A stretch of DNA of 63,905 nt, counting the filler, from Lophium mytilinum (lineage: Eukaryota): NCBI GenBank assembly GCA_010093605.1. It is 18 parts of 5 records of this genome, joined end to end, with 100 filler letters (N's around TTAATTAATTAA, not from the genome) between each part and the next. Parts side by side here need not be neighbours in the genome. Positions count along the whole stretch, not along the records: positions 30,474 to 33,857 come from MU004182.1; positions 33,958 to 47,908 come from MU004182.1; 16 more parts are not named here. One strand, given 5' to 3'. The notes under the pieces are model-generated. The model saw nothing but the letters and a program-made list of their open reading frames with translations, was not told the origin of the DNA and did not search any database. Both the position numbers and the translations under genes were made by a program. Below, one piece after another: positions 14,751-58,603 of this stretch (positions are counted from its first letter, which is position 1; every line of letters begins with the position of its first letter).

Positions 14751-14799
14751 AAGTACTAGCTAATATAGTAATAGCTAAAGCCTATATATACTCTCTACG

Positions 14800-20039: not shown

Positions 20040-20043
20040 ATTA

Positions 20044-20830: not shown

Positions 20831-20874
20831 GTATATAGTTATATAGCCTTTCTATTTAATATATACTTTATATA

Positions 20875-20932
20875 TAGTATTACTATTTTAGTATTACTAT
20901 TTTAGTATTACTATTTTAGTATTACTATTTTT
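20875..20932. repeat. 14-bp tandem repeat x4
   Basis: Unit TAGTATTACTATTT is repeated downstream of the transposase. Confidence 0.85.
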
Positions 20933-22234: not shown

Positions 22235-25200
22235 TATTTATATTTATAGAGGGTCTAGTCTTACTAAGACTATATATATTAAATTTAAGCGTAGCTATAA
22301 TATTAATACTACTAATTACTATATCCCCCGCAACTTAAGTATTACTAGAAATAGTCTAGCCGCTCTTTATAGTAACTATAAGTATATAGAGTTATTTTTA
22401 GATAGTTAAATACTAAGTAGTTCTAGGTCTAAATGCCCTAAGCTGCTATATAACCTTATTATAGATAATACTAGGCTAAATAGAATTATATATTAACTTA
22501 GTATATAGCTAGATAATATTAAGTATCTATTAGAGTAGTTATGCTTTCTTCTCTATTTATAGCTTTTATACCTTCTTCTCTACTAGTAGTTTCTACTTTC
22601 TTTATTCCTCTTACTCTACTATTTCTTCTAGCTATTTCTACCTCTTTACTTTCTCTTTAGTTATAGTCTTAGCTAGCTCTCTCTTCTTTTATTCTATCTA
22701 CTTTTTAGCCTTCTCCGCTATTACTATATCTACTAGCTCTCTCTTTTTTATCTCTTTCTTCTTTATCTCTTTCTTCTTTCTTTCTTTCTCTACTTTTACT
22801 ATTTCTGCTAGCGCTTTCTCTACTAGCGCTTTCTCCGCCAGCTCTTTCTCTATTAACTCTTTCTCCTTCTTCTCTTTCTCTTTCTTTTTTTTCTCTACTT
22901 TTGCTGTTTCTACTAGCTCTTTTTTCTTTTTTTCTTTCTCTTCTTTTACTATATCTACTAGCTATTTCTACTTCTTCCCTTTATTCTACTCTATAGTAGA
23001 ATTAACTCTATCTATATTAGCTATATATATATCTAGACTTATAGTTAAGTTAATAATTATTTTATCTAGAGTATTAGCGGCGGTAGGTTTAGGTAGACCC
23101 TTAGCTGCGGTAGCCTTAGGCTTACTACAGCGGGGGCATTTTTTAGCCGGGCGGATACTAGGGGGCGGGGACTTAAGAAAGTATAGACCTAGCTATGCAT
23201 TAGTTAGTAGTAATATTTAATAATTAATAATAATTAATATATATTTAGTCTTAAGTTTAAATATTACCTTTTTAATATTAAGGCCCTTTACTATAAAACT
23301 AAGTACTATCTCTTTAGGTATACTCTTTATTTCCTTTAATAGCGTAGTTAGATAGAAGTTATTTTCTATTAACTTCTAGATTCTATTAACTATAATAATA
23401 TGCTCTAGAGGGTTAAAGTCTATAAAAGTTCTATTAATAGCTTCTAGAAACTTTATAAAGCTATAGTCTTCTAGCTCTAGGCCTTTACTACTAGACCTTA
23501 TAAGATAGAGAGTAAAAAGGCGTCTAGTACTTTTCTACTGCGGTAGCTAGTATATTATAGCAAGAACTGTATATAATAGCCGGGGCTTAAATAGGGTATT
23601 TTAGGTAGTAATATCTAGGGATTTTATTAGAGAGCTAAGGCCTACTAATATAACTAACTTTATAGATAAGGCTAACTTAAACTACTTCTACTTCTTATTA
23701 CTTTTAATAATATTACCCTATATCTTATATTTCTTATAGACTTTATACTAGATTAATATCTAATATACTTACTTCTACTTAGCTAATATAGAAGACTTCT
23801 TAAATATATAACTTTATATATCTATAAAAAGCGTATATATTTTAAACTAAGTATTTAAGTAGATATTATTCTTACTATAGTTATTTTAGCCTAGTTATAA
23901 GAAATATTTTACCTATAGGTACGCTTTAGAGTTCTCTATTAGTATAAATAAGTTAGCTTCTATTTAGCGCTATACCTTAAAAGCTAGACCTAAGCTAGCT
24001 ATAATATTTATTTAACTTAAGTAGCCTTTAGAGTTCTTAGTAAAATTAAATGCCGCCTTACTCTATATAGATATATTATATAGTAGGTCTACTAGAAGTA
24101 TTATAGCCTTTTCCTAAGTAGGTCTAGAGTATTAGCGGCTACTATAGAAAGGCCAGCGGCTATAGTAGTTATCTAGCTTATCTAGCTCTAAATTACTATT
24201 ATAGTCTACTTAACTAGAGTCTATACTTAATAACTATTTATCCAGGTTAAACTTCTTATTATTTTAATTATTAGGGAGGCGTTATTAGTAACTAGTACGT
24301 TAATTTAATCCTTTAGCTATATTAGGTAAATAAGATAAGAAGTTAGGGTATAAGAAAGGTAGATAGAAGAGAGTAGGGTTAGTAGATAAAATAGCGTTAT
24401 GCAGTAATACGGGCGAGGGCAGGTAGAAGGCTAATAATATTAGATAAATAGCAATAGTAAGTAATAAGTAAGGTAGTTACTTACCTATAAAGTTATAATA
24501 GTAGATGCTACTTATAGTATAATTAACCTTAGAATTACGCGCGTTAAAAAATAAGGTAACTATAGTAGAAGATATATAAATCTATACGCGCTAGTAATAG
24601 AAATAGCTACTCTTAGTTATACTTTTAAATAGGTATAATATCTATTAAAGAAATACTTATAGAGCGGTACTAGAAATATAGTAAATATAGATAAGCCTAA
24701 GGCGTAGAGAAGAAAGTTAGCGTATAAGGGAGGAAGGAGAAGAAGAAGAGAGAGAGGAAAGAGAGAGATAGAGGAGGAGGAGAATAAGAAAGAAAAGATA
24801 GGTAAGAATAGTAGATAAGAATTAGAATTAAAAGGCTAGATAGAAGGTAAAGTTTAAAGTAGCGCATAATTAAGTATATAATTAGTAAACAGGCTATATT
24901 ATAATATAATAGAAGTAAAGAGTTATATAGCTTAAAAAACTCTACTACCTAATAATTAGTAATAATTAGCCTCTACCTTAATATTTATCTATACCTATTA
25001 GCTTTTAGTAACACTTAATAGATTAGTAATAACTTCTACCTAATATTACCTTCTACTTGCCTAGGTTAGTTAATATAGGGAGGAAGGCTAATTTCTATAT
25101 ATAGGTGCTTCCCCCTATTATTTAAGTTAGTATTATAAGCTCTACTAGATTAGCAGCTAATAGGTTAAGATCCTTAGAATAGAAAGAGAAGTTAGCTATA

Positions 25201-28200
25201 GCTATTTAAGAAGGTACTATACTACTTATTATTACCTAAGCTGCTGCGCGCCTCTCTACCTCTAATAGTAGCTTATTATCTACTAAAGTTGCGCCCTATA
25301 AGCTAGTAGATAGTAGTACTAATTTATATATCTTCTTACTATCTACTCTTTTTATAAGTATTACTAATTTAGCTTATACTATAGAATAGCTTACTTACCT
25401 ACTTTCTCTCTTACTAAATAAGTACCCTTACTTTCTAGCCCCTCTACTAGCGCGCACACTGCCTCTATATAGAGAACGCCTACTTTAACCTATCTAGAAA
25501 GACTAGCGTTACTTATCTATATATTTATTATACTTCTTATCTACTTACTTACCCCTACTAGCGCTAGGCTAACTATAGTCTACATTTAACTAGCCTATAT
25601 ATCTCTCTCTCTTATAGCCCTCTACTACTCTAGGTAGCGCTTTCTAAAGGCTCTACTTAGTAGTTCCCGCTCTCTCTCTATCTCTTATAGCTCGCGCTCT
25701 AATAACTAGGTTAGCGTACTTCTTTTTATAGATTTAGCCTTTCTAGAAGTAGTAGAATTACGCAGTTATATCTTATAGGCTACGCCTCTAGAATATATAT
25801 AGATTAGTAATACTTAAGTTTATCTATTATAGTATACTATAAGGCTAACCCTTAAGTATAGCTTAAAATTAGTAGAGGCAGGTTAGAAGTAGATAAGAAA
25901 GATAATAGAGTAATACTTAGATATTTAGGGGACTAATTAACTACTATATAGTACCTATATTCTACTAGGTAATTTAGCTATTAAATGCGCGTTTAGATAA
26001 AAGCCTCTTAATGCAACTAATATCTTACTAGATATAATAGTGCTTAGTTCTAATCTAATTATTAGCCTAATATTATACTAGCCTTAACTCTAACTCTCTA
26101 GAAGGTAGCTACTACTATAGTAACTTATACCTTCTATAATAATAGCTAATATACTACTAGCGCATATTAGACTAAAGCCCTAAACTCTTTTAATAACCNN
26201 NNNNNNNNNNNNNNNNNNNNNNNNNNNNNNNNNNNNNNNNNNTTAATTAATTAANNNNNNNNNNNNNNNNNNNNNNNNNNNNNNNNNNNNNNNNNNNNAC
26301 TATATAGCTAAAGCGTTAGCTAAAATATAGTAAGTAGTAGAGGGCTACTATAATTAGAAATAATTAATAATAATTAAAAATAATTAGATATTCTACGGGC
26401 GGCCCGGGTAGACTATAGTATAAGAGTTACTACTAGCACTAGTTATAGGCGCCGGCGACTTAAATAGAAGGTAGTATCCCCGCTACTAATTTAGAGGTAT
26501 TAGTAATCTAGAAGTCTTTTATACCTATATACTTAATTTAAAATACTAAGTTATTATTATATTTACTATAGGTTATATATATAAATACTAGATAGTAATA
26601 TATATAGTCTATAAGCTAATATCTTTCTAGGGCTAAATATCTACTAGCCTAATTTCTAGCACTATTAATAAGGGCTTAATAATCCTTTAGCTTTCCTATT
26701 AACCCGGTATAGAATAGGGCCTAGAGTTTTACCGGGGTATTATTATAAAAGTAGCTAAAGAACTTAATCTACTTCTAATAGCGCGGTATAGACTATTAAA
26801 GAAAGGCTTAAGTACTCTTATAATTTATAAGAAGATAGTTCTCTACCCTTACTACTTACTAGTTCTTATAAGTTATCTACTCTCTATCTACCTTATTCTT
26901 ATTAAGCGCAGTTATTACTAATATATATGCCGCTAATTCTACCGCGTATAAGAGGCTTAAGCGGCCAAATTAGTAATATTATAAAACTCCCTACCTAACT
27001 AGCGCCTTCTAGCTATTATCTAATTTTGCGCTAGCTAAGAGAGATGTAGAGTTTAACCTAGGCTACTTAATGCGCATCTAATATTACTATCTTATAGCTA
27101 TTCTATAACTAGTACTTACTCTAGCAGCCGTCTTCTTAATAACGCCGGCACTCTTAGTAGATACCTATTAACTCTATTTTACTAGACTAGTAATATATTA
27201 CCGCCTAGCACTTATCTTATAGAAGAGAGTAATGCGCTTAAACTTAGTATCTTCTTCTATATTGCCTAGATAGCACTTGCCTAGAATTAAGAGTTCTTTA
27301 CTATAGCTAGTAACTGCGGTAGAAAGTTAGATACTAGAAATTAGTAAGAGGTAATACTTACTTTTAATACACGCTGTGCTATTAAAACTAGAGAAACTAG
27401 ATATAACTACTAGTATGCGCTTAAAACTACGCCTACTATAAAGGTTTATACTAGCTATAAAGAATATAGAAATAATAGAAATAATTATATATAGGCTTTA
27501 GAGTTATAGTTTAAAAAAGTAAGCTATAGTCTTTAACGCGTAGATATATTAAGGTTCTAGGCTAATAGAATAGCCCGCCCTTTATTAGAACGCGTTGCGT
27601 ACTATTAAAGAATAATAAGTGCTATATACTAGCCTATAATCTAATATAATCTATAATAATTACTTATAATCTATAAGTTTCTATATAGGGCTAACTAAAT
27701 TTAACTAGAAATAGAGTATATATCTTCTACTAAATATAGATACTACTATAAGTTATTTTAAATACTTAGCGCCCTAAATAAATATATACCGTGCTATAAA
27801 AAGCTTCTTAAAATACTATAGCGGGTCCCGCTTACTAATACTAGAACTATTAAATCTGTAATCTAGTCTTATATACTTTATATTATTTAGATAATAGACG
27901 GGATCTTATTTAGAACGCCTAGATTACTACTAGTAAGTCTACCCCTACTAGCTAACCTCTATAATAAGATAGAGTATAAGATAAATAAAATAGAGCTATA
28001 TATCTCTAGTAAACTAAAAGAGTACTAGAGTCCGCTTTCTATAAATAGAGGCCCTATAAGCTTAATATATAATAACCCGCTAGAGGCTACTAAATTCTAT
28101 ATTTTATACTAATAAGGCTAACTAATAATATTATCTATATTATTACTATAAGAGAAAGTATATTTCTCTACTAAATTAGGCATGCCCGCAGGGGCGTCTA

Positions 28201-30373
28201 TTAGACAGGCTAATGCTAGATAGTAGATATAAGTATTATTAGAGACCGCTATCCCCCCCGCCTATAAAGGTAGTATTAAAGCTTACTAACTAGTTACTCT
28301 ATTATAGGGACTAATCCCCCTTCTATCTATTCTAATTAGTATTTAACTATGCTTTTATATTATAGCTTTAGTAGATTAGCTGCACTAAGAATAATATTAA
28401 CCTGCTATTTNNNNNNNNNNNNNNNNNNNNNNNNNNNNNNNNNNNNNNNNNNNNTTAATTAATTAANNNNNNNNNNNNNNNNNNNNNNNNNNNNNNNNNN
28501 NNNNNNNNNNCTATAAGATATAATACTAAGATAAATTATCTAGAAAAGTTAGCAAGTATTAGCCTACTTAAAGAGGTAAGTAAGCACCCCCTCTTCTATA
28601 GATACCTACTAATATAATATCCCTTTTCTAGCTATTTAGATAATACTATTAAGACTCTATTATCTATAATACTTATACACACGCATTACTAGGTAAGATA
28701 CTAACCTTTACCCTTCTAAAATTCTTCTATATATACGGTTGCGTCTACTATATAGACCTAAATACTAATAAATACTTTAGCCTATAACTATTATCTCCTG
28801 CTATAATATATATAGATTGCGGATCCGCTAGCCTTATAGATAAGTATACTAGTCTAGACCCGCTCTAACTAAATATAGTTAACTAGTTAATAATACTTTA
28901 AAACCTTTTAAGTAATATCTATATATAATATATTATTAATAATAAATAATAGTTAGACTATAACCTACTAAAGCCTTTTAATCTAGAGGACTTTTAGTAC
29001 TTAGTTAATCTATATATAATAGAACTTACTAACTATAGAACTAATTTAGAGATAAGTAAAGCGTTTAAGTTAGAATTTAAGCCTAATGCGGATAATATAG
29101 AAAAGAAGAACACGGAGATAGAGGTAGGCAAGGTAGGTAATACTAAAGTGGAGATAGAGGCAGATAATATAGAGATAGAGGATAGTAGGTAGAAGGCTTC
29201 TCTTAAGCGTGCTTAAGTTATATAGTAGGCGGTATATATAGTTAGTCTAGACCCCTAAATATAGTAGTTTATTCTATAATAGTGTTTATATTTAAGTATA
29301 AGGTATAATAGAGTTTTAAAAATATTAATATATAAGTTAATTACTAGTAATTTAATTTTTCTTACTATTTATATACTTAACTCTTTTCTTTTATAGATTA
29401 TTAATTATAATTAGAGATTATATATATCTCCCTTTTATAAGTAGAGTTAGCCCGCTACTTATATTATTTTACCCGTTTTAATTCTATTACACCCCTTTTT
29501 ATTAAGCAGGGCTACTACTTATTTAAACACCGCGCAGGTATATATAAGTTAGTTATACTAGTTAAGATTTACGCCCTATAAACTATTTAAAGTAATACCT
29601 AGAGTAGCTAATATTAGGGGCTACATCTCTAATAATATTAAGAGGTATTCTATTAGTAGACCTACTACCCCGTTTAATAGACCTAAATTCTTTCTCTAAT
29701 TCTAAAGTAGTATATATTATTCTTTACCTTTAGGCTTTAATACTAGAAGACTGCCCTTTATAGAGTTTAGTATTGCCTGCAGCTTCTACTTTATTACCTC
29801 TAATACTTAATATAATTAATTATAATTAGAGATTATTGCCCTCTTATAATAGTATAAAGTCTATCTTAACTATCTAACTTCTTAGGCTATATAGTATTAT
29901 CTATTACCTAAGCTAAGGCTATAAACCCGCTTTACCTAGTAGGCACGCGTTATATTATAGCTAGCAAAAACCTTTACCTTCTCTACTAATAACTAAGCAG
30001 GCTAGTAAGTAAAATCTAACTCTAACCTTACTCTTATATATAAGCCTTACTATACTCTTTCTTACTATATTACTAATAGCTTAATAGCCTAAGTTACTAT
30101 AACCCTGCTACTATAATAGAGTAGATAGTAGTCTACTAGAATAGACTAGTAGACCTTACTATTACTATCTATATTAATAGCTATATAAACTACTTTAAAG
30201 CGCTATATACTATATATAGTAGAGATAACCTAAAGAAAGCTACTATATTTTTCTAGCGCTCTTAGAAAGATATTACTAACTTTAAGGTTAAATATAATAT
30301 ACTTATCTAGTCTATATATAAGTATTTACTATACCTAGTTCTAAGTTAAGAATTAGGTAATATAAAGGGCGGC
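22235..30373 (-). mobile_element. Large Plavaka/SNF2 element, copy 2 (inverted, partial)
   Basis: 22235-26198 is the reverse complement of ~41660-45590. 26299-28410 is the reverse complement of 37078-39190 and includes the Plavaka N-terminus. 29000-30373 is the reverse complement of 2508-3738. Confidence 0.9.
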
Positions 30374-33300
30374 NNNNNNNNNNNNNNNNNNNNNNNNNNN
30401 NNNNNNNNNNNNNNNNNTTAATTAATTAANNNNNNNNNNNNNNNNNNNNNNNNNNNNNNNNNNNNNNNNNNNNCTTAGTAGTACTAGAGCTAATATATAT
30501 ATGCCCTATATATAATACCGCCTACATCCTACTATAAAATAATTCTATTCGCCGCTCTTCCCTCTCTATAGTAGTGTAAGGCGGGGGTAGAAGTAAGTAG
30601 AAATAGTAAGTACTTAGGCTAGAACGTCTAATCTTTATTCTATAAATAGTTAGTATAGTAAAGTTAGAGCTATAGTAGTTAAAAAGTAGATTTAATAGAT
30701 ATATAGAGGATAGGTAGAAAAGATATAATTTATCTATTCTATAATTTAGTGCTAGGTCTAGCTTATAAATTATAATTGGGATACTTAATATATTCTTAGG
30801 TAGACTCTTACTATATTACTACTAAGACCTATTATTTAAAAGTTAGGCCGCGGTGTATAACTATCTATAAATAATAAAAAGTATATAACTATTCTACTAC
30901 TAATATAAGCTCTAGTAGTAGTCTCTTACATCTATATTATAGGATAGCCTCTAGTATTATAGCTATAACGCTACTGCCTCTATAGCTTCTTCTTTCTATT
31001 TACTTCTTCTATATCTCTTATTTCCCTCTATATTAGCACGCTTTACTCCTTCTATTTATATTTTAGGTTGCCGCTCCTCTATTTATAGTCTCTTCTATTA
31101 CACTTTTAACCTTAGAAGTTAGAATACTATTATTTTATAACCTAGCCTATAGTATACTTATATGCTAGAAGGTAATAAAAATATATACTCTCTATCTAGC
31201 GGGGCAGTTATAGAACCTAAAATATACTTAAAGGAATAGGCTAGAGTCTCTTTTAAAATATAAAAATATAGGGGGCACGCTATAATAATTATAGATAATC
31301 TTATATAATCCTAGATAATCTTACGCAGTACTATAAGAAGAGTTAGAGATATTAGAGTAGGGGTAGCTTTATTTTCCCTCTCTCTACCGCGTTATTATAT
31401 AGTAGATAGTTATCTATTACTAGCGTATATAAGGGCTAGGTTATCCCTATAATACTAGATTAAAGCATATCTAGTGCTAGTAATAGAGTATATATTCTAT
31501 CCGCCTACTTATTTTCTAAGAAAAGTAGGGCTAGAGAAGTAGTAGTTAGGGTAGAGTTAAAAGCTAGTAGAGAATATAGATATATAGTTATATATAGTAG
31601 TTAGAAAGATTAAGAGCTATATATATAAAAGATTATACTAGAACTAAAGCGCTATTATATAGAGTAGAGCGGAAGGAATAGAGAAACTTAGTAGAAAAAA
31701 AATTCTATAGAGTAGAGCAGGAGGAATAGAAAAACCTAGTAGATAAAAAAGCTTATAGAGTAGAGTAGAAGGGATAGAGAAGCTTAGTAAGTAATATAAG
31801 CTAGTAATACTAGAGTATATTATCTTTACCTAATATAGCTCTATAGAACTATACTAGTCTAACTACTAATTTAAATATTAGTGCGCTATTAGCTTTCTAT
31901 TATAGTAGATACTATTAGTAAGCTATACCTGCGTACTACCTTTTATTCTCTATATTCTAGCTTTTTAGATAAGTTTCTACTAGCTTTAGCCCCTACTATA
32001 ATTTATTAGTATATATAATTTTAATACCCGCTATATTCTAAATAGTTAGCCTTAAGTTAATCTCTACTATAACTCTTCTACCTTTTTAACTCTTACCACC
32101 TTCTACTACTCTATAGCGTAGAGAAAGAGATATAGGGTAGGCTTTTATACCTATAGAATAGAGAAGAATAGTCCTATTATATATGCGGGCAGGCGCTAGA
32201 AATTTAAGGCTTAGGCGTATGTATTTTAACTAATAGTTACTATATACTTTTCCCTTAAGTACACTATTAGAATCTTGCATAAGTGCGTCTTTATAGTAGT
32301 ACGCTATTATTGCTAATAGTTATTCTTAATTAGCCTTAGGTTTAATTCCTTATATTATAGCTTAACGCGCTAGGTATTATAACTATAGAATATCTCTAAA
32401 CAGGTATTATAAAACTAGTAGTGTTTTTAAGCGCGTGTAGTTTAGGGGGTTTATATTAGAAGTAGGTAGATAAATAGTTTCTAAGTTAGAGCTTAAAGTA
32501 GAGGTAGGCTTTAAGATATAAGGTATATATATATGCTACGCATCTATTAAAAGTTAACTTAGTAGCGGCGTAAAAGTATAGAAGATATATAGAAAGTATA
32601 TATAGATAGACTTATATAGTTCTATTTAAGGCTACTTTCTACCTATACATGCGCTAGAAAATTAGTAATTTCTTAAGAAGGTACTTACTATACTAAGCGT
32701 ATACGCCTTCTATATCTACTTTTAGGCGTCTCTTAGATAATATTAGAGGAGTAGAAGATAGTAGGGTTAGTATTCTTTTCTTTATCCCTTACTATATAAG
32801 TACGTATAATTTCTAAGGCCTTTTTAATACTAGTTTAAGCTATAATTAGGCCTATTTTAGCCTTATATAAGGCTGCCTCCACCGCCTTTAAGCTATCTAG
32901 GTCTCCTATAGATAATACCTTCTCTATAGTATTTTCTTTATTCTAGTTAACTTTCTCTATCTAGTTCTTTCTATTATTAAAGTAGTATATATCTAATTTA
33001 TTTTTATCTTCTATAAGGTCTATAGGCTCTAGTTTATTAGGTAGCGCTTTATATTTATTCTTTAAGGTTATACCTTAAGTTTCTTATTCTAATACTACTA
33101 TTCCTAAGTTCTTCTCTTTAGCCTTAGCTATTGCTAAGGTCTCTAGTAATAATAGCGCCTTTTATATACTTCTAGTCTTCTAGTATATTAAGGTCTATAG
33201 CTTATCTATAAAGATATAGGTCTCTAGTAATAATAGCGCCGCTTGTATACTTCTAGTCTTCTAGAATATTAAGATCTACGGCTTAACTATAAGAATATAC

Positions 33301-34239
33301 TTAGTATAAATTTAAACTTCTAGTTAGAGATTATAGTTATTTTTCTCCCCTTTCTCCCTAGATATAGCTGCATAGTAGCTAATAGCCTTGCCTAAGGTAG
33401 CGCAATTTAAGTAGAATAATATTAGGTTTATAAGGCTAACTTTAAATATAGAACTATCTTTAGGGTTAATAAAGTAGGTATATATTAGTAAGAGAATTAA
33501 ATGCGGGTTAGTAAATATATAATCTTCTTGCGTATAGTAGCGGCGTATATTTTAGGTTTTAGTAGTAGTAGAAGGTCTTTCTAATATCTATATTAATAAG
33601 TATAGATTAGAATATACTTAGTAGAGTAGGTATTAAAGTATAGCTTATATATATAATTAGTGCTACGCTACTAGTAATATTAAGTATATTTATAGATATA
33701 TTAACTTAGAGTCTATAGCCCTTATATAGCTATACTACTATACCTTCTTTACCTCTAGAGTATTTAAAGCTATTTTTATCTAGAACCGCAGGTACTATAA
33801 GCTTCTTATACTAGTAAATAGTTAGTAGACGCAGGTAGAAAAGTAGTAGATAGACTTNNNNNNNNNNNNNNNNNNNNNNNNNNNNNNNNNNNNNNNNNNN
33901 NTTAATTAATTAANNNNNNNNNNNNNNNNNNNNNNNNNNNNNNNNNNNNNNNNNNNNGTTAATTACTATAAAGTATTAAGAAAAGAAAGTAATTAGGGGG
34001 TAGTAAGTTTAAGTAGCCGGTAAATTTAATTAGGCGGCCGTTATTAGTAAAGGGAAATAGGTAAAGGTAGTAATATACAATTTTAAAAAGTAAAGTAAGG
34101 TAGCGCTAGTAGAGTATACTAGCATTATCTAGTTTTATAGAAATTATATAGGAAAGTATATAGTTATTATCTTACATTAATTAGCCTTAGAGGTTAATAA
34201 AGCTAAATAATACTTAATTATCTCTTAATAGTAGGGAAA

Positions 34240-37200
34240 AATTAAGAATATCTTTTCTTACGGCCTTATTTCTACCTATACTATTACTTACTAGTGCTAT
34301 AGCCCCTCTTTACTATGCTACTTCTTAGTGTTTACCGGCTTAGTTGCGGGAAAGAGGTATTAGTAAGTGCTTTTACCCTTATGCACTTTACTAAAAACTC
34401 CGCTGCATCTTTAACTTTTAAGGTAGCTTTAATCTCTTTAGCGCAACTGCTAAGCTAGTACTATCTTATTACTTCTTATGCCTCTATCTTCTAGTCTTCT
34501 ATATAGAGTATATTATATTAATCCTAGTTAATATAGTTATTAATAAAAAAATAGGTAGAATCTAGGCTAGAGGTAGCTAGTATAATATATGCACTTTAGA
34601 GAACTTATAGTAATAGATAGAATTAATATACTTCTAGCTTTTATTAGCGGCAGCTATTATTAGAAGCCTAAGGAGCTACCTCTACTAGACTATAGATGTA
34701 ATATAGCTTTCTATTATTAATTAGTGCTAGAAGGTAAATAAAAACTCTAGAGTATACCGCCTATAGAGTGTTTTTACCCTTTAGAATAGGGTCTATAATA
34801 GTTACTATAAATTATAGCTATTCTACTAACCTTCTATTAGTAATACTAATACGCATTTTTCTATTTTTAGTATAGTTTAAGCTATACTCTTGCACCTATA
34901 GATAGTTGCGTTACTATTCTTAGTTTTACTACTTAGGGTTATACTATAGATTTTCTTTTATAAGGCTTTCTAGGTTCTTACTAGTACCTAATTACTTCTA
35001 ATATAAAATACTAGCGTGGAACTTAAGCTAGAGGTAGCTAATCTAGAATAGATTAGGGTCTAATATATCTAGGCTGCTAGGCTTAGTATATTAGTCTTAG
35101 ATCTTGCGCCTCTCTTCTTAAATAAATATAGCGGCGGCGGCTATAAAGTCTAGCTTCCAGCTTATATTAGCTATATACTTAATACTTACTTTTAAATAGT
35201 GCACTATTTAGCCTTTATAGAAATTATTATATCTAGGCTATTTAAAGTTTAAAATATTAATACTTTTTAATACTATTATCTATCGCATTAGCATATCTCT
35301 TATTACTGCTAGTTAAGAATAGTAATATTAGTAGTTTAGTATATTATTTATGGCCTAGTTATTTATAAGTCTCTAGTTTAATTAGTAGATCTAGGGTAGA
35401 AAGTCCTTATAGTTTATTAACTAATACTATAATTTAACTAGGTATTAGTATTTTACTTTACTATTTAAGCCGGTATTATAGCTATTAATGGCGCTAAATT
35501 TCTATATAAAATTAACGTAGTGCTGCATAATATAGAATTTTAGGTAGTAGAAGGTATAGTTTCTATTCTTATCCCTAGGTTTAAATATTCTAAATTCTAA
35601 CTTATATATATTAATTTAAGCTATTACTAGCTCTATATACTCTAGCGTAGCCTTATTATGCGTCTTATACTATACTAGAATAGTAAAATTAAGTATTATA
35701 TAGATAAACTAGAGCGTATTTAGCGCCTTTACTTCTAGTAGTAGTACTACTACTACTATAAGCTAGCGGGCTATAGACTTTTATTTAGAGCTAGTATACT
35801 ATAAGAGTTTACTAAAATTCTTCTTATTAAATGTAGATAGACCCGGAAAAGGCGGCACGTTCTTAAATTGCTTATCTAGCTAGGTTAAGCTACTCTTATT
35901 TTCTATTAGAATACGGGCATCTTTTCTTCTAATTACTAGGGTGCAGACCTCTACTACTAGTAGCTAGACCTATTTAATAAGGTTATAAATAACGCCTATA
36001 AATAGTTAGTATAGAATATCTATTATTATTATCTAGTAGATATTAGTATAGGGGTATTTCTAGGTAAAGTTATTTATAGAATATATATATAACTCTATAT
36101 TAAGCTCTATAGCCTCTATATTATATAGCGCTTTATTTAATAGAAGTTTTAAATGCTCTTTATTATTGCGTTGCTATTTAATCTAAATAATAGTTAAGTA
36201 GTAAAACCTTATAGCGTATTTAGTCTCTAGGTCTTTATATTAATGCGATAGTACCTGGCATATAGTGTAGTATTTTCTAAATTTAATATCTATAAGTAGG
36301 CTCTATTCTTTATAATTAGCTATAATCCCGCATAATACTAGATAGCACCTTTAATTCTTACTATTTCTATATTCTAGTATAATTCCATTAGTAGTATATT
36401 CTATAATAGCTTATTTTATATTAGAAAACCGCTTAGTATTAGTAAGAATTTTACTAACGCCTAAGAATATAGCCTAAAGAGCTATAGTATAGCTANNNNN
36501 NNNNNAGAATATAGCCTAAAGAGCTATAGTATAGCTAATACTTTAGGTAGTCTTCTTTATCTACTATACTTAGTATAAAGCCTAGTAGTAGGGTGCTAGG
36601 TAATATATTTAAGCACCGCGTAGTTCTATCTAGGTTGCTAATAGTTAGATAGACTAGCTATACGCTCTTATTACTGTAATATTAGGTAAGCTATATCTTA
36701 TCTATAGAGAGTAAGATAGATATTACTATAGCCTCTACTAGAAGCTTTAACTAAGTCTACTACTACTAGTTTAATATATATAACTTAGTATATACCTACT
36801 AGCCTTCTATATTATAGACTTAAACTAGTATAAATATAAGGTAATTATAGAAAGGGCAGTATTTAATTAGAAATAATATAGCTGCTATTATATTAAAGTA
36901 GTATACTAGATACTACTCTCTACTTAAGCTTTATTTTTTACTTAGGAAATATAGTATCTCTACTATATAGTTAGTATTGCTAATACTATATCTAATTTTC
37001 TCTAGTTTACTATTCTATAAATCGCCTAATATAAATGTAAGGGAGTTAGAGAATATACTCTTAAGGTAGATATTATTAAATAGTAGATTAATATTATTCT
37101 TAGTATAGCTAATCTACTAAAGCTATAATATAAAAGCATAGTTAAACGCTAATTAGAATAGATAGAAGGGGGATTAGTCTCTATAATAGAGTAACTAGTT

Positions 37201-37700
37201 AGTAAGCTCTAATACCGCCTTTATAGGTAGAGGGGACGGCGGTTTCTAATAATACTTATATCTACTATCTAGTATTAGCCTATCTAATAGACGCCTCTAC
37301 GGGCATGCCTAATTTAGTAGAGGGATATACTTCCTCTTATAGTAATAACGTAGATAATATTATTAGTTAGCCTTATTAGTATAGAATATAGAATTTAGCA
37401 GCCTCTAGCGGGTTATTATATATTAAGCTTATAGGGCCTCTATTTATAGAAGGTAGACTCTAGTACTCTTCTAGTTTACTAGAGATATATAGCTCTATTT
37501 TATTTATCTTATACTTTATCTTATTATAGGGATTAGCTAGTAGAGGTAGACTTACTAGTAGTAATCTAGGCGTTTTAAATAATATCCCGTCTATTATCTA
37601 AATAACGCGGAGCATATAAAACTAGATTATAGATCTAGTAGTTCTAGTATTAGTAAGTAGAACCCGCTATAGCGTTTTAAGGAGCTTTTTATAGCACGGT
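34240..37700 (-). pseudogene. Plavaka-type transposase relic
   Basis: De-RIPed minus-strand motifs in order: PFYPF..FDYA (~37150), RVYTELHTSNWWW.TQ.KLP.GATVVPILLS.DKTQLT...GDKSAWPVYLTIGNL (36800-36630), RRCYPVLCGIMADYEEQ.LL.GIK....C..C.VP (36350-36250), LDKQFKNVPPFPGL.TF (35880-35830, readable without de-RIP), QYTG.EQK, LDFTILAQYKTHD..TL, PKFH..QHYVDFIRKFGAIDGYDT (~35540-35470), INNYIDWDQYNTLY (~34545-34505). Confidence 0.9.
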
Positions 37701-39199
37701 ATATATTTATTTAGAGCGCTAAGTATTTAGAATAACTTATAGTAGTATTTATATTTAGTAGAAGGTATATACTCTATTTCTAGTTAAATTTAGTTAGCCC
37801 TATATAGAAACTTATAAATTATAAGTAATTATTATAGATTATATTAGATTATAGGCTAGTATATAGTACTTATTATTCTTTAATAGCACGCGATATATTC
37901 TAATAGAGGGCGGGCTATTTTATTAGCCTAGAACCTTAATATATCTACGCGTTAAAGACTATAGCTTACTTTCTTAAACTGTAACCCTAAAGCCTATATA
38001 TAATTATTTCTATTATTTCTATATTCTTTATAGCTAGTATAAACCTTTATAGTAGGCGTAGTTTTAAGCGCGTACTAGTAGTTATATCTAGTTTCTCTAG
38101 TTTTAATAGCATAGCGTATATTAAAAGTAAGTATTACCTCTTACTAATTTCTAGTATCTAACTTCCTGCCGCAGTTACTAGCTATAGTAAAGAACTTTTA
38201 ACTCTAGGCAAGTACTATCTAGGTAATATAGAAGAAGATACTAAGTTTAAGCGCGTTACTTTCTTCTATAAGGCGAGCGCTGGGCGGTAATATATTACTA
38301 GTCTAGTAGAATAGAGTTAACAGGCATCTACTAAGGGTGCCGGCGTTATTAAGAAGATGGCCGCTAGGGTAAGTGCTAGTTATAGGACAGCTATAAGATA
38401 GTAATATTAGATGCGCATTAAGTAGCCTAGGTTAAACTCCGCGTCTCTCTTAGCTAGCGCAAAATTAGATAATAGCTAGAAGGCGCTAGTTAGGTAGGGA
38501 GTTTTATAATATTACTAATTTAGCTACTTAAGCCTCTTATACGCGGTAGAATTAGTAGTATATATATTAGTAATAACTACACTTAATAAGAATAAGGTAG
38601 ATAGAGAGTAGATAACTTATAAGAACTAGTAAGTAGTAAGGGTAGAGGACTATCTTCTTACAGATTATAAAAGTACTTAAGCCTTTCTTTAATAGTCTAT
38701 ACCGCGCTATTAGAAGTAGATTAAGTCCTTTAGCTACTTTTATAATAATACTCTAGTAAAACTCTAGGCCCTATTCTATACTGGGTTAACAGGGAAGCTA
38801 AAGAATTATTAAGCCCTTATTAATAGTACTAGAAATTAGGCTAGTAGATATTTAGCCCTAGAAAGATATTAGCTTATAGGCTATATATATTACTATTTAG
38901 TATTTATATATATAACCTATAGTAAATATAATAATAACTTAGTATTTTAAATTAAGTATATAGGTATAGAAGACTTCTAGATTACTAATACCTCTAAATT
39001 AGTAGCGGGGATACTGCCTTCTATCTAAGTTACCGGCGCCTATAACTAGTACTAGTAGTAACTCTTATACTATAGTCTACCCGGGCCGCCTATAGGATAT
39101 CTAATTATTTTTAATTATTATTAATTATTTCTAATTATAGTAGCTCTCTACTACTTACTATATTTTAGCTAACGCTTTAGCTATATAGTTCTATATTCT

Positions 39200-40602
39200 C
39201 TAGCTAAGCTTATCTTTATATAGATTCTATAGTCCGTAATTATCTTACGCGTTTAAGTTATTACTACTATTACTATCTCTATTAAGGAGCCTAGCGTAGT
39301 CCTTAAGGTCTAGAATAGCCTTATAGATATAATCTAAGATAGTTAGCTACTAGTATATTAATTTATTATCGCCTAAGTATAGTATATAGGTACTATCTTA
39401 GTTAGTATTATTATCTTTGCTAGTATTGCACTTAGAGTAGAAGTTATTACTTCCGTTATAGCTAAAGGCGGAGTAGTAATAGCTAACTACTAGATAGCTA
39501 CTTACTTTATAATAGTTAATAGTGCTATTAGTAATTAGTTCTTAAATAAATATAGTAAAACCTCTAGCTATATAGTAGTTAGTATAGAAGGTTAGACTAT
39601 TAATATAGTAGACTTTAGTAGCGTTCTATTTATCCCCCTCCGCACTATTACTAGCCTTAGCCTAGCCAGCCTTAAACTTATCTAGTACCTTAGCGTAGTA
39701 TTTAAGAATATTCTTAATATTATATTTACTATGCCCTTCTAGTCTACTAGTTATCTTAAAGTTATAAACTTACTTAACCATAACCTATACTAACTTAAAT
39801 AGGGATAGAAACTAGTTAGAGCGGCCTTAGTAGGAAATATTAATAGTATATAGTCTCTCTAGCGGTATATAATTCTCTATTATTAGAACCTAGTACTAAT
39901 CTAGATATATATAAAGGGGCTTAGTTGCGTCTATAAAGCCCTCTACTATATTATTTATTATATTTACTATATTTAGCGTTATAGGTAATACTATAAGTAT
40001 TTTAGTAGCTATATTATATAATACCTTATAAAACTTCTTATAAGTCTAGGCGTTAACCTATTTCTATAATAAGTTAACTAGTATAGTACGCCGGGTAATA
40101 TTTTTATATACTATCTAAGTAGTATACTAGCGCTTATTATCTAGACTTTACTCCTCTATATTAGAAGTAGTAACCTTAAAATAGAGAATATAATCTAGGT
40201 CTATATACTTACTTAGAGTATTAATAGAAGAGTAGGTATAGTAGTTACGCCGGGGCACTAGTAGGTTCTCTATAATTCTAATAAATAGTAGGTTAGTTTA
40301 GGTAAAAAGTTTAGCCTTTTATAACTCTAGGAGCGGGGGTATAGTTTATAGTAGGTTTAGGGGCTACTTAAGGCTATAAAATTCTCTAGCTTATACTTCT
40401 ATAGATACTAACTTCTCTAGAGTATCTAGTATAGACATAACTAGGTGCATCTAGGTAAAACTATCTATTATTATAGCCTTAAACTTCTTATTAGTATAGA
40501 TAGTATTAAGTAGAGAGTCTACTTAGCTATAGAATATAATCTAGTATAGCTTATTAGTATATAGTAATCTAAATACTAGAACTATAAATATAAGCTATAT
40601 TT
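39200..40602 (-). pseudogene. Unidentified ORF relic within the large element
   Basis: Long plausible minus-strand reading frame, but no recognisable motif. Frame openness is weak evidence in RIPed DNA. Confidence 0.3.
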
Positions 40603-41452
40603 NNNNNNNNNNNNNNNNNNNNNNNNNNNNNNNNNNNNNNNNNNNNNNNNNNNNNNNNNNNNNNNNNNNNNNNNNNNNNNNNNNNNNNNNNNNNNNNNNN
40701 NNNNNNNNNNNNNNNNNNNNNNNNNNNNNNNNNNNNNNNNNNNNNNNNNNNNNNNNNNNNNNNNNNNNNNNNNNNNNNNNNNNNNNNNNNNNNNNNNNNN
40801 NNNNNNNNNNNNNNNNNNNNNNNNNNNNNNNNNNNNNNNNNNNNNNNNNNNNNNNNNNNNNNNNNNNNNNNNNNNNNNNNNNNNNNNNNNNNNNNNNNNN
40901 NNNNNNNNNNNNNNNNNNNNNNNNNNNNNNNNNNNNNNNNNNNNNNNNNNNNNNNNNNNNNNNNNNNNNNNNNNNNNNNNNNNNNNNNNNNNNNNNNNNN
41001 NNNNNNNNNNNNNNNNNNNNNNNNNNNNNNNNNNNNNNNNNNNNNNNNNNNNNNNNNNNNNNNNNNNNNNNNNNNNNNNNNNNNNNNNNNNNNNNNNNNN
41101 NNNNNNNNNNNNNNNNNNNNNNNNNNNNNNNNNNNNNNNNNNNNNNNNNNNNNNNNNNNNNNNNNNNNNNNNNNNNNNNNNNNNNNNNNNNNNNNNNNNN
41201 NNNNNNNNNNNNNNNNNNNNNNNNNNNNNNNNNNNNNNNNNNNNNNNNNNNNNNNNNNNNNNNNNNNNNNNNNNNNNNNNNNNNNNNNNNNNNNNNNNNN
41301 NNNNNNNNNNNNNNNNNNNNNNNNNNNNNNNNNNNNNNNNNNNNNNNNNNNNNNNNNNNNNNNNNNNNNNNNNNNNNNNNNNNNNNNNNNNNNNNNNNNN
41401 NNNNNNNNNNNNNNNNNNNNNNNNNNNNNNNNNNNNNNNNNNNNNNNNNNNN

Positions 41453-43250
41453 TCTATTAAGTCTAGATACTACCGCGCATAAGCTAGACTTACTACTTAG
41501 TCTCTATTTAAAGTATATTAGCCTTTACTATTCTAGACTATATATTACTATTAGGCCTAATATATTTAAATAGTTAGTTAGTATTAGTATAGGTAGATAC
41601 GCTTATATTCTAAATAAAATAGTTAGAGTTAGAGAAGAGGCTATAATTTAATAGCAAGTAGGTTATTAGAAGAGTTTAGGGCTTTAGTCTAATATATGCT
41701 AGTAGTATATTAGCTATTATTATAGAAGGCGTAAGTTACTATAGCAGTAGCTACCTTCTAAAGAGTTAGAGTTAAGGCTAGTATAATATTAGGCTAATAA
41801 TTAGATTAGAACTAAGCACTATTATATCTAGTAAGATATCTATTGCGTTAAAAGGCTTTTATCTAAACACGTATTTAATAGCTAAATTACCTAGTAGAAT
41901 ATAGGTACTATATAGTAGTTAATTAGTCCCCTAAATATCTAAGTATTACCCTATTATCTTTCTTATCTACTTCTAACCTACCTCTACTAATTTTAAGCTA
42001 TACTTAAGGGTTAGCCTTATAGTATACTATAATAGGTAAATCTAAGTATTACTAACCTATATATATTCTAGAGGTATAGCCTATAAGATATAACTGCGCA
42101 ATTCTACTACTTCTAGAAAGGCTAAATCTGCAAAAAGAAGCGCGCTAACCTAGTTATTAGAGCGCGAGCTATAAGAAATAAAGAGAGAGTAGAAACTACT
42201 AAGTAGAGCCTCTAGAAAGCGCTGCCTAGAGTAGTAGAGGGCTATAAGAGAGAGAAATATATAGGCTAGTTAAATATAGACTATAGTTAGCCTAGCGCTG
42301 GCGGGGGTAAGTAAGTAGATAAGAAGTATAATAAATATATAGGTAGGTAATACTAGTCTTTCTAGGTAGGTTAAAGTAGGCGTTCTCTATATAGAGGCGG
42401 TGTGCGCGCTAGTAAAGGGGCTAGAGAGCGAGAGTACTTATTTAGTAAGGGAGGGAGTAGATAAGTAAGCTATTCTATAGTATAAGCTAAATTAGTAATA
42501 CTTATAAGAAGAATAGATAGTAAGAAAATATATAAATTAGTGCTACTACCTACTAGCTTATAGGGCGTAACTTTAGTAGATAATAAGCTACTATTAGAGA
42601 TAGAGAGGCGCGTAGTAGCTTAGGTAATAATAAGTAGTATAGTACCTTTTTAGGTAGCTATAGCTAACTTCTCTTTCTATTCTAAGAACCTTAATCTATT
42701 AGCTGCTAATCTAGTAGAGCTTATAACGCTAACTTAAATAATAGAGGGGGGCACCTATATATAGAAATTAGCCTTCCTCCCTATATTAACTAATCTAGGT
42801 AAGTAGAAGGTAATATTAAATAGAAGTTATTACTAATCTATTAAGTATTACTAAAAGCTAATAGGTATAGATAAATATTAAGGTAGAGGCCAATTATTAC
42901 TAATTATTAGGTAGTAGAGTTTTTTAAGCTATATAACTCTTTACTTCTATTATATTATAATACAGCCTATTTACTAATTATACACTTAATTATATACTAC
43001 TTTAAACTTTACCTTCTATCTAGCCTTTTAATTCTAATTCTTATCTACTATTCTTATCTATCTTCCCTCTCTTATTCTTCTCCTCCTCTATTTCTTTCTT
43101 CTCTCTCTCTCTTCTTCTTCTTCTTTCTCTCTTATACGCTAACTTTCTTCTCTATACCTTAGGCTTACCTATACTTACTATATTTCTAGTACCACTTTAT
43201 AAGTACTTCTTTAATAGATATTATACCTATTTAAAAGTATAACTAAGAGT
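41453..43250 (-). pseudogene. Unidentified low-complexity ORF relic (E/R-rich N-terminus, P/S/Q-rich body), divergent from the SNF2-like gene
   Basis: Purine-rich GAG/AGA/GAA tract on the minus strand at 43050-43150, seen on + at 24715-24800 and 61680-61770. Present in all four copies. Confidence 0.4.
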
Positions 43251-43538
43251 AGCTACTTCTATTACTAGCGCGCGTGGATTTATATATCTTCTACTATAGT
43301 TACCTTATTTTTTAATACGCGTAATTCTAAGGTTAATTATACTATAAGTAGCGTCTACTATTATAACTTTATAGGTAAGTAACTATCTTACTTATTACTT
43401 ACTATTACTATTTATCTAATATTATTAGCCTTCTACCCGCTCTTACCCGCATTACTATATAATGCTATTCTATCTACTAACTCCGCCTTCTTCTATCTAC
43501 CTTTCTTATACCCTAACTTCTTATCTTATTTACCCAAT

Positions 43539-46500
43539 ATAGCTAAAGAATTAGGTTAACGCACTAGTCGCTAATAACGCCTCCCCGATAATTAAAATAA
43601 TAAGGAGTTTAACCTAGATAAATAGTTATTAAGTATAGACTCTAGTTAAGTAGACTATAATAGTAATTTAAAGCTAGATAAGCTAGATAACTACTATAGC
43701 CGCTAGCCTTCCTATAGTAGCTACTAACGCTTTAGACCTACTTAGGGAAAGGCTATAATACTTCTAGTAGACCTACTATATAATATATCTATATAGAGTA
43801 AGGTAGTATCTAATTTTACTAAGAACTTTAAAAGCTACTTAAGTTAAATAAATATTATAGCCGGCTTAGGTCTAGCTTCTAAGGTATAGCGCTAGATAGA
43901 AGCTAACTTATTTATACTAATAGAGAACTCTAAAGCGTATCTATAGGTAAAATATCTCTTATAACTAGGCTAAAATAACTATAGTAAGAATAATACCTAC
44001 TTAAATACTTAGTCTAAAATATATACGCTTTTTATAGATATATAAAGTTATATATTTAAGAAGTCTTCTATATTAGCTAAGTAGAAGTAAGTATATTAAA
44101 TATTAATCTAGTATAAAGTCTATAAGAAATATAAAATATAGGGTAGTATTATTAAAAGTAATAAGAAGTAGAAGTAGTCTAAGTTAGCCTTATCCATAAA
44201 GTTAGTTATATTAGTAGGCCTTAGCTCTCTAATAAAATCTCTAGATGTTACTACCTAAAATGCCCTATTTAAGCCCTAGCTATTACATGCGGTCCTTACT
44301 ATAATATACTAGCTACTGCAGTAGAAAAGTACTAGACGCCTTTTTACTCTTTATTTTATAAGGTCTAGTAGTAAAGGCCTAGAGCTAGAAGACTATAGCT
44401 TTATAAAGTTTCTAGAAGCTATTAATAGAACTTTTATAGACTTTAACCCTCTAGAGCACGTTATTATAGTTAATAGAACCTAGAAGTTAATAGAGAATAA
44501 CTTCTATCTAACTACGCTATTAAAGAAAATAAAGAGTATACCTAAAGAAATAGTACTTAGTTTTATAGTAAAGGGCCTTAATATTAGAAAGGTAATATCT
44601 AAACTTAAGACTAGATATATATTAATTATTATTAATTATTAAATATTACTACTAACTAATATATAGCTAGGTCTGCACTTTCTTAAGTCCCTAGCCCCTA
44701 GTATCCGCCCGGCTAAGAAACGCCCCCGCTATAGTAAGCCTAAGGCTACCGCGGCTAAGGGTCTATCTAAACCTACCGCCGCTAATACTCTAGATAAAAT
44801 AATTATTAACTTAACTATAAGTCTAGATATATATATAGCTAATATAGATAGAGTTAATTCTACCGCAAAGTAAGATAAAGAGGAGAAGCGGAAATAGCTA
44901 GTAGATATAGCGAAAGAAGAGAAAGAAAAAAAGAAGAAAGAGCTAGTAGAAATAGCGAAAGTAGAGAGAGAAAAGAAAGAGAAAGAGAAGAAGAAGAAAG
45001 AGTTAGTGGAGAAAGAGCTGGCGGAGAAAGCGCTAGTAGAGAAAGCGCTAGTAGAAATAGTNNNNNNNNNNNNNNNNNNNNNNNNNNNNNNNNNNNNNNN
45101 NNNNNNNGGAGAAGGCTAAAAAGTAGATAGAATAGAAGGAGAGAGAGCTAGCTAAGACTATAACTAAAGAGAAAGTAAAGAGGTAGAAATAGCTAGAAGA
45201 GATAGTAGAGTAAGAGGAATAAAGAAAGTAGAAACTACTAGTAGAGAAAAAGATATAAAAGCTATAAATAGAGAAGAAAGTATAACTAGTTTAATAGATA
45301 CTTAATATTATCTAGCTATATACTAAGTTAATATATAATTCTATTTAGTTTAGTATTATCTATAATAAGGTTATATAGCAGCTTAGGGCGCTTAGGCCTA
45401 GAACTACTTAGTATTTAACTACCTAAAAATAACTTTATGCGCTTATAGTTACTATAGAGAGTAGCTAGACTATCCCTAGTAATACCTAAGTTGCGGGGGA
45501 TATAGTAATTAGTAGTATTAATATTACAGCTATGCTTAAATTTAATATATATAGTCTTAGTAAAACTAGACCCTTTATAGATATAAATAAGATAATTATA
45601 GCTAATATAGAGAAGGTAGATACTATTAATATTACTACTATAATAGCCCTAATATTAAGCTCTATAAAAAATATCTTAGTAGTAGCGTTTAAGAAGATGC
45701 TATAGTTTTTTAGTTTACCTCTAATATATAGAAATTTTTCTAGTAATATAATCTTTAAGCTACTAGAAATAACTACTAATCTAAAAATGCGTGTAGCTTT
45801 ATACTAGGTAGCCGGGATATATAGTATTATCTAAGGTCTTACTAGTAGGGCGCGTAGGCTAATTCTTATAGACCCCCCTAGAATAGAAAAAACTCTATAA
45901 ATATTAATAGCATTTACTACTTATACTAGAGAGGCTAGTACTAATACTCCGCGTTCTAGTAGTATTAAAGGCTACGTTATTTAGCTTACTAAGAAGAGTC
46001 TACTAAATTAGACCTATAAGGAGGTAAAATACTAGCTAGATATTAAATATAAGAATAAGAATTTTAAGGTCCCCGGTAGAAGACTTTATATCTAGTATAT
46101 ATATAAAAGTATTATAGAGGGTAACCTTACTTCTAAAGACTAGAAGAACCTTAAGCCTATCTACTAAGAAATAAATAGTTAGGTGTAGTATAAGCTAAAT
46201 CTAAGAGTAAAAACCTATCTTATTATTATAAGCGCGGAGACCTTTAATAAAAAATATAATAAGAATTTAAACTTGCTAGAGACCTTTATAATATTCTATA
46301 ACCTATTATATAGTAATAAAGTAACCCCTATATATATATATAGGGCTATTTTTTTTAATAAGTTCTACCTAGAATTTAATAATATATCTCTATATATTAT
46401 AGCTTTTAGCTATATTAAGTCTATATAGTGTTAGTATATATTCCGCCTAACTACGCGTAAATAGGTAAATATTAACTATGCGCTTAATTAGGTTTATTAG

Positions 46501-47908
46501 GGCTAGAACTTAAAAGGGTTTAATAAGGCTGCTAATTTATATAGCTACCCCGGAGGCTTATTCTATAGCAGGACTCCTTTTCTCCGCGGCCCTAAAACTC
46601 TATTATATCTAATAGTTATACTATATAGAGGTTTATAGACGCTAACTTAAATAGTAGACCTAACTAACTTAAATACTAATATTAAAGATAACCTAGATAA
46701 TACTCTTCTAGATAAAAAGTTAGAGGAAGAGGATATAGATAAAGGAAATAAGTTTAATATTCTTTATTAAGGCTCTACCCTCTAGCGTATTAATTAAGGA
46801 GACCTTATAGGGGCTAGAGGTTACTACCTTACTTTAAAAATAGAGAAAGAGCAGCAACTATAGAATAATTCTAAATTATCTAGGCGTCTCTAGAGAGTAT
46901 TAGATATAATTATAGCTATAAGTATCTATAAAATACTAATAAGCCTTAGCCTAGATAGCCTTTTCTTAGGGGATATACCGCTCTATATTATATAGCAGGT
47001 AATAGTTAGTATACCTAACTACTTTAAACTTTTTATTAAGAAGTACTATATAGTTATTAGAGAGAGATATATAGACCTTAAAGAAGAGTATAAAGAATAG
47101 CTAAGGTATAGAGCAGTAATTAATAAGCCGCCGCCTTTCTTTAGCCTAGGCGCCTTTCTAATAGACTTAGGTAAGAAGAGGCTGCCCCGGATTTTTATAT
47201 TAATTTCTAGGCTAGCTAAGTTAAAGATGTAATAGGAAGAGCTTAGCTTAATAAGTAATCTAATCTTTACTCTAGAAGATATTAAAAATGCGGGCTAGAT
47301 AGATTACATAGACTTAGAGAGTACCCTTACTAAATAGTATACTAACCTACTAGCTAATTTAGAAAAGCTAAAAAAGATTAGGAGTATAGTTTAATATATT
47401 TAAGCTAAGAAGAAGAAGATACTAATTATTAGCAAGGAGCCTATAGTTAATTTAGTTATCTATATTATAAGTTACTACCTATCTCTATCTATAATTAGCG
47501 ATTATTATCTAATAAACTAATATAATTAATACTAGATAATTATAAAGACTATACTAACTAAAAAGCTTGCATAGTTATATTTATTACTAATAGTTAAGTA
47601 ATAGAAGTAATTTAATACTAGCTTTAAGCGTAATTAAGATAATCTAGCGGCCGTTAATATTCTAGTTATAAACCGGAAGATTAGAGAAGTAGAAGGCTCT
47701 AACTTTACTTTTTAATGCACGTGCGTAATAGTTATAGAGCTATAGACTATATCTAGCCTTAAGGTATAGATTATATCTAGAGTATAGTAGAAGAACTAGA
47801 GGTCTAATAGAATATATAGCATTATTCTCGCCTATATAGGGGGTAATAACCTAGCGGATGCACTAGCTTAGTCTTATATAGTTAATAATAATAAGTTTAT
47901 ATATAAGG
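43539..47908 (+). pseudogene. SNF2-like DExH helicase gene relic with K/E-rich coiled-coil
   Basis: De-RIPed motif I FDxxGLGKT at 45541-45567 and motif II IFFDEFH at 46348-46368 lie in the same frame. HelicC region KMLI..E P, LH....R..F, ILV....G.EG.NF...CV.VMEP......E.Q...RV.R..Q at 47415-47800. K/E tract at 44870-45260. Probable 69-nt intron at 47467-47535. Confidence 0.8.
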
Positions 47909-48008
47909 NNNNNNNNNNNNNNNNNNNNNNNNNNNNNNNNNNNNNNNNNNNNTTAATTAATTAANNNNNNNNNNNNNNNNNNNNNNNNNNNNNNNNNNNN
48001 NNNNNNNN

Positions 48009-53517: not shown

Positions 53518-53621
53518 TAGGCTAATTTATAAGGGGAAACTATTTACTACTAGATAGAATAGCTATATAAACTCTAATAGAAGCTATACTAGTATAATAG
53601 AGTTTAATAATAATAATAATA
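53518..53621 (+). mobile_element. Terminus of a (TAA)n-tailed element
   Basis: 53550-53620 is the reverse complement of 61893-61963 and ends in (TAA)5. Confidence 0.6.
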
Positions 53622-58504: not shown

Positions 58505-58603
58505 NNNNNNNNNNNNNNNNNNNNNNNNNNNNNNNNNNNNNNNNNNNNTTAATTAATTAANNNNNNNNNNNNNNNNNNNNNNNNNNNNNNNNNNNNNNNN
58601 NNN

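Follow-up and report, generated by a model that had tools for sequence, protein, structure and literature searches.

The stretch analysed here, referred to throughout as the window, is 63,905 bases of DNA from Lophium mytilinum (assembly GCA_010093605.1), and the region under study within it, 30474-47908, is made up of two entries, 30474-33857 and 33958-47908, that are joined by a spacer at 33858-33957. The region contains the remnant of a Plavaka-family transposase gene and a long former open reading frame (ORF), both of which have been degraded by repeat-induced point mutation (RIP), and parts of it are found again in three other partial copies within the window. An earlier interpretation, made from the sequence alone (the sequence-only reading), had described the region as a giant transposon of this family carrying a SNF2-like helicase. 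The two features on which the present interpretation is built are:

35985-36939, minus strand: Plavaka transposase domain (PF18759) in degenerate form, interrupted by 10 N at 36496-36505
45451-47908, plus strand: long former ORF, cut off by the end of the contig; 50 of its 819 codons are stops (34 TAG, 16 TAA and 0 TGA)

The transposase was found by a Pfam scan, in which six-frame translations of five contiguous pieces, 30 frames in all with X placed at stops, were searched at E<=0.01. Two matches to PF18759 were obtained and these are the sole families in the 30 frames, the first placing profile positions 35-161 on 36939-36574 of the minus strand (E 9.4e-6, 25.5 bits) and the second placing positions 192-318 on 36416-35985 of the same strand (E 1.3e-4, 21.8 bits). 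The matches are adjacent and collinear across the 10-N gap, so that a degenerate Plavaka transposase gene is present, and this bears out, at the level of sequence similarity, the family assignment made in the sequence-only reading. RIP has degraded the translation beyond a residue-level reading of the catalytic DDE residues and the C(2)C / H(3-4)H motifs that mark Plavaka. The 10-N gap itself is flanked by an identical 32-bp sequence (36464-36495 and 36506-36537), it is a contig overlap of the kind that k-mer assemblers leave and the true join is an overlap, not a gap. No Plavaka protein was returned when the Plavaka frame served as query in a word-seeded protein search, as a query altered by RIP cannot seed such a search, and the segments that are seen in other copies alone (28511-30373 and 5246-6200) gave no Pfam family in 12 frames.

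The sequence-only reading had proposed about 4-5 unknown genes, but besides Plavaka only a few frames in the studied region show a deficit of stops. The plus-strand frame in the phase of 45109 is one that does, with 9-11 stops per 600 nt compared to ~25-27 in the other frames, and this is seen both in the studied region (copy C below) and in copy A. It is in this frame that the long former ORF lies, and copy D (58504-56353) lengthens it by ~680 bp. Its family is not recognisable: phmmer with the ORF as query gave 0 matches to PDB chain sequences at E<=10 and, run exhaustively against 1.84 billion representative proteins, 0 matches at E<=0.001.

It is apparent that the whole region is degraded by RIP, the process in Pezizomycotina by which duplicated DNA acquires C-to-T and G-to-A point mutations. 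GC content is 0.16-0.32 in 2-kb windows of the stretch, there are 0 ORFs of at least 150 aa in the window, and the RIP indices are 1.83 for TA/AT and 0.14 for (CA+TG)/(AC+GT). When copies are compared in 12 gapless pairs, which cover 21,412 bp without an indel, 1,450 sites differ (6.77%) and transitions make up 99.1% of these differences (98.4-100% in a five-pair subset), with 741 CpA+TpG left against 11,787 CpT+ApG and 13,290 TpA. This is a textbook RIP signature, in line with the degradation supposed earlier, and it is like RIP in Pezizomycotina in its transition-only copy differences, CpA depletion, TpA excess, high AT and lost ORFs, with no difference found.

Once C/T and G/A are collapsed the copies are 99.75-99.95% identical, and thus a recent amplification followed by RIP is indicated. 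Reversal of RIP using the window copies alone gave no longer ORF, with 8 frames of at least 90 aa both before and after, and therefore RIP is saturated and largely shared between the copies.

The copies in question, with the segments of the studied region through which they are compared, are:

1-9874, plus strand: copy A, partial, five contigs in the order X, Y, P, Q, R
22235-30373, minus strand: copy B, partial, three contigs reversed, R/Q, P, Y
30474-47908: copy C, the studied region itself
56353-63905, minus strand: copy D, partial, R then Q, interrupted by contig 58605-60288
37078-39189: segment P, the reverse complement of copy B 26299-28410 (93.75%), with 37832-39138 also in copy A at 3839-5145
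41453-45061: segment Q, the most repeated, 41661-43148 being present in four copies; no Pfam family
30474-33857: segment X, a separate contig, 31450-33857 being equivalent to copy A 1-2408 at 92.65%; no Pfam family in 6 frames

In self-BLAST, 16 of the 17 long copy pairs listed are 92.6-93.8% identical, and 91.2% is the value for the remaining alignment, which crosses a 46-N gap. The segments keep one order and orientation across the four partial copies. For four contigs there are, by simple arithmetic, 384 possible arrangements of order and orientation of which 2 are collinear, so the collinear order seen is far from chance and clearly non-random. The sequence-only reading had proposed that one long unit recurs four times with conserved order; the conserved order and orientation hold, but four-fold recurrence is limited to 41661-43148, with the remainder of the studied region mostly in two or three copies and 5,509 bp in total (30474-31449, 33958-37077 and 39190-40602) having no second copy within the window. 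A similar qualification applies to the proposal that the N-terminus of Plavaka is joined to the neighbouring repeat in two copies. The joined segment does recur, 26299-28410 being segment P reversed, but that segment lies upstream of the Plavaka domain and itself matches no Pfam family, and the domain that Pfam can detect is single-copy in the window.

The alignments of at least 200 bp end at contig ends on both sides, the exceptions being three that abut 249 extra bp in copy D (61895-62143), and as the long alignments stop in this way the boundary of the repeat is shown by no copy. At this place copy D has ~249 extra bases and a 10-N gap, compared to 18 bp in copies B and C. The match of 61892-61991 to 53518-53621 is found in either orientation and points to a small repeat, inserted or hairpin-like.

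Segments X and Q also hold simpler repeats. In segment X there are tandem arrays at 31654-31789 (48 bp x 2.8) and 33137-33299 (81 bp x 2.0), and it is speculation that these could be the subterminal repeats of a CACTA-like element. Part of the same segment, 31392-31959, matches 53912-54464 in inverted orientation at 68.7% over 584 bp, this is not a copy pair and may belong to a repeat family that is older or related. Segment Q ends in a purine-rich low-complexity array (44891-45055) detected by TRF. With 228 codons, the frame at 22534-23217 on the plus strand is the longest open one in the window. It is equivalent to the minus strand of ~44640-45290, and it is probably open from composition, being the pyrimidine-rich strand of the purine-rich array, and is not evidence of a gene.

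How the segments are joined in the window depends on its construction. The stretch is a chain of 18 separate entries, with no sequence overlap across any spacer in self-BLAST, and every one of the 17 junctions of 100 bp has the same form with an identical twelve-mer at its centre:

3739-3838, 33858-33957 and 47909-48008: examples of the spacer, N44 + TTAATTAATTAA + N44

We take this to be a six-frame-stop spacer of the kind used for stringing separate contigs together. Across the window there are 2,490 N in 39 runs, and some entries hold sized gaps of their own (78, 10, 850, 46 and 10 N), with those of 10, 850 and 46 N lying within entry 33958-47908. The 46-N gap of copy C (45062-45107) is spanned by the contiguous contig 22235-26198 of copy B, and the 78-N gap of copy A is likewise spanned by copy B contig 28511-30373. 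The 850-N gap (40603-41452) lies between the Plavaka side and the long-ORF side, and the contig of copy A enters it by 904 bp (5246-6149) with no overlap with 39190-40602. As the order of the contigs is non-random, the spacers probably stand for an adjacency that is real or was guided by a reference.

Outside read data add a further view of the repeat. Of the words sampled from 36506-40602, a fraction of 0.49 is present in each of two small runs, X1 and X2, made from the same organism and sample, and on 33958-47908 the two runs yielded 1,521 and 1,388 short contigs respectively at a likeness of at least 97%. These contigs cover 29 of 30 bins, bin 40948-41413 being bare because it is N, and their variants are transitions only; among the matches listed the pieces are 116-191 bp long. 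Such coverage is consistent with a family that has many further RIP-variant copies across the genome. On 33958-47908, no contig of X1 to X4 crosses the 850-N gap or reaches past the ends.

A joint that runs from 46269 back to 34603 across 34 other letters is also present in contigs of X1 and X2 (depths 137.6 and 77.2, figures that are not copy numbers). This joint is a minority rearranged arrangement and its 34-letter filler is absent from the window. A terminal inverted repeat (TIR) at the joint was considered and rejected, identity being 23/60 and agreement by purine/pyrimidine class 29/60, which is no signal. From two air-metagenome runs, X3 and X4, came 22 and 13 short pieces respectively, which are 43-131 bp long among the matches listed and mostly continue into unlike sequence; these say nothing about the element and at most hint at related repeats elsewhere.

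Between copies A and B there is a 12-kb contig, 9975-22134, with a stop-deficit frame of 4.3 kb (14551-18900) and a RIP-degraded match to RT_RNaseH_2 at 16938-17240 on the plus strand (E 2e-5). It holds the pol remnant of a long terminal repeat (LTR) retrotransposon, unrelated to the Plavaka repeat, and the neighbourhood is therefore a mixture of dead transposable elements (TEs).

The explanation that best accounts for these observations is a multi-copy and probably large transposon of the Plavaka family, killed by RIP, that carried at least one long cargo ORF of unrecognised family, and we would give this a probability of roughly 0.5. When alive the element would most likely have been a large cut-and-paste transposon of this CACTA/EnSpm-related DDE family, of at least ~14 kb within one scaffold and perhaps ~20 kb in total, with its transposase gene on the minus strand (domain 35985-36939) and at least one other long gene on the plus strand, from 45451 to beyond 47908. 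A recent burst would have produced near-identical copies, after which C-to-T and G-to-A changes by RIP would have all but removed CpA and destroyed all reading frames. That all of the segments formed a single mobile unit, what size it had and that it was moved by the transposase are things we infer, with support from the pairwise identity, which is uniform across segments, and from the 14-kb scaffold 33958-47908, which links the Plavaka remnant and the long ORF.

A number of points weigh against this explanation. The left 3.4 kb (30474-33857) is attached through an artificial spacer only, the 850-N gap between the two sides of the scaffold is bridged by no sequence, and copy D carries the unrelated 1.7-kb contig 58605-60288 where copy C has 44439-46435. 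No terminus, TIR or target site duplication (TSD) is visible in the window, where all long alignments end at contig ends, and RIP would turn short terminal motifs into AT-rich strings that are indistinguishable from background. The Plavaka domain is single-copy in the window, so that a copy number equal to that of the other segments is presumed, and a segmentally duplicated block would show the same uniform identity as a transposed unit. Each PF18759 match also falls under the Pfam gathering score of 26.3 bits, although this is as expected of a RIP-degraded copy that is read through its stops.

Several of these points suit an alternative in which an ordinary-sized Plavaka element lies beside, or is nested with, unrelated repeats in a block that was segmentally duplicated or is an artefact of scaffolding, and was then subject to RIP. 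The adjacency of the segments depends on artificial spacers and on the unbridged gap, the window mixes TE remnants (with the pol remnant at 16938-17240 separating copies A and B), an unrelated contig interrupts the unit in copy D, and the X1 and X2 contigs that join 46269 to 34603 show that rearranged arrangements exist. In the excerpts available from one study the consensus of a Plavaka that carries cargo is moreover just 9,895 characters (PMC12730594). Such a composite has to contend with the same order and orientation being kept in four partial copies, with a pre-RIP identity and a RIP divergence shared by all segments, and with variant contigs of X1 and X2 over the whole scaffold, which imply more copies than a few segmental duplications would provide. 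It is considered a substantial possibility, if not the favoured one.

The Plavaka transposon with cargo may also be put in a more specific form, as an autonomous element of ~20 kb in a RIP-competent ascomycete that underwent a recent burst and carried a cargo gene of ~1000 codons or more belonging to no recognisable family, a gene that might conceivably have encoded a superfamily 2 (SF2) ATPase whose distance from canonical SNF2 was no less than that of bacterial RapA. In this form the proposal is tentative and leans towards the doubtful.

The helicase of the sequence-only reading is not supported. Pfam gave no SNF2-rel_dom (PF00176), Helicase_C (PF00271) or other helicase family, either in the 30 frames at E<=0.01 or in 6 candidate frames at E<=10. 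A RIP-aware comparison was also made, in which each codon is scored against a profile column with an ancestral C allowed under T and an ancestral G under A. The SNF2 profile for this was built from the cores of 30 bacterial loci, 25 of which were aligned over 499 columns, and its consensus shows all SNF2 motifs; the background was taken from 138 frames of 23 contigs of at least 600 bp, with a best score of 21.7 bits and a median of 15.25. On the candidate frames the profile scored 18.1 and 18.3 bits, values that were reached by 12/100 and 14/100 codon shuffles. A block of motifs IV-VI reached 16.8 bits in the frame of copy C, ending at 47799 and equalled by 19/200 shuffles, and 17.9 bits in copy D, at a non-homologous place and equalled by 8/200 shuffles.

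The same comparison, when applied to four SNF2 genes held out as positive controls, gave 520-690 bits for the intact genes and 341-520 bits once RIP to GC 0.19-0.37 had been simulated, the corresponding values for the remote control rapA being 41 bits and 27-33 bits. The profile is narrow, being drawn from one broad bacterial family, and a SNF2 protein as divergent as RapA or more could escape it. RapA orthologues were dropped as a source for a general SNF2 profile as their mutual identity is at least 83%, and twenty further loci were left unused, being mostly of the same bacterial family (14 of the 20 scoring 319-687 bits). Plavaka, in the same element and at the same level of RIP, is still detected by plain Pfam and SNF2 is not. 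The SNF2 label of the long ORF has no support, because all tests for SNF2 were negative while Plavaka remained detectable. A single Plavaka transposon of 17-20 kb with a SNF2-family ATPase/helicase as cargo is therefore very unlikely, for although a long former ORF sits at the claimed place, its C-terminal strings loosely resemble helicase motifs V/VI by eye and the best motif IV-VI alignment in the copy C frame ends there at 47799, Pfam and phmmer are empty and 18.1 and 18.3 bits lie below the 21.7 bits of the window noise maximum, compared to 341-520 for SNF2 controls and 27-33 for RapA.

Should the block as a whole prove to be a single element, Plavaka, which is a little-studied CACTA-related family characterised for the most part in mushrooms and truffles, would be extended to an unusually large form that carries cargo in a RIP-active ascomycete, and the element would record a recent burst that was subsequently shut down by RIP. 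As it stands the case is mainly cautionary, in that contigs joined by spacers can mimic one giant element and resemblances to motifs seen by eye in RIP-degraded DNA, here those of SNF2, fail statistical controls.

Among known systems, a fungal DDE transposon that carries a helicase gene would reportedly find its closest precedent in Academ; the present repeat differs from it in that its transposase is Plavaka and a helicase is undetected. With Starships there is a likeness in being a large fungal mobile element that carries cargo, the difference being that the remnant here is of the DDE-type Plavaka. Six-frame Pfam scans of all unit segments found no tyrosine recombinase or DUF3435, with a sensitivity that is lowered by RIP, and this agrees with the distinction from Starships that had been drawn from the outset. 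No described element combining Plavaka and SNF2 was found in full-text searches of the literature, where, in the passages retrieved and among the matches listed, work on fungal giant transposons and their cargo has zero mentions of SNF2, and a helicase named along with Plavaka is that of Helitrons, RecQ, a domain filter or the title of a reference.

Plavaka itself is grouped with EnSpm/CACTA in the CMCT clade, which also includes Mirage, Chapaev and Transib, in the excerpts available from PMC12730594. The same excerpts describe Plavaka families that were reconstructed from Agaricomycotina, some of which carry TET/JBP genes, and give termini of TGT..ACA with 2-bp TSDs for PlavakaA and of CATCA..TGATG with 2-3 bp TSDs for PlavakaB (PMC12730594). 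In the ascomycete truffle genus Tuber, Plavaka elements have TIRs, 2-bp TSDs and a CATAC terminal motif, according to the excerpted text of PMC12581995. The repeat in L. mytilinum is like these in having a PF18759 remnant and in being a multi-copy fungal repeat, and both extra genes and ascomycete hosts are known for Plavaka from the excerpts. It differs in that no TET/JBP or other cargo family is detected and all copies have been destroyed by RIP, and it differs in its apparent size, which is at least 14 kb and perhaps ~20 kb compared with the 9,895 characters listed for the TET-carrying consensus Plavaka-11_AB in Table S1 of the excerpted study (PMC12730594), so that an element of ~20 kb would be ~2x the length of that consensus.

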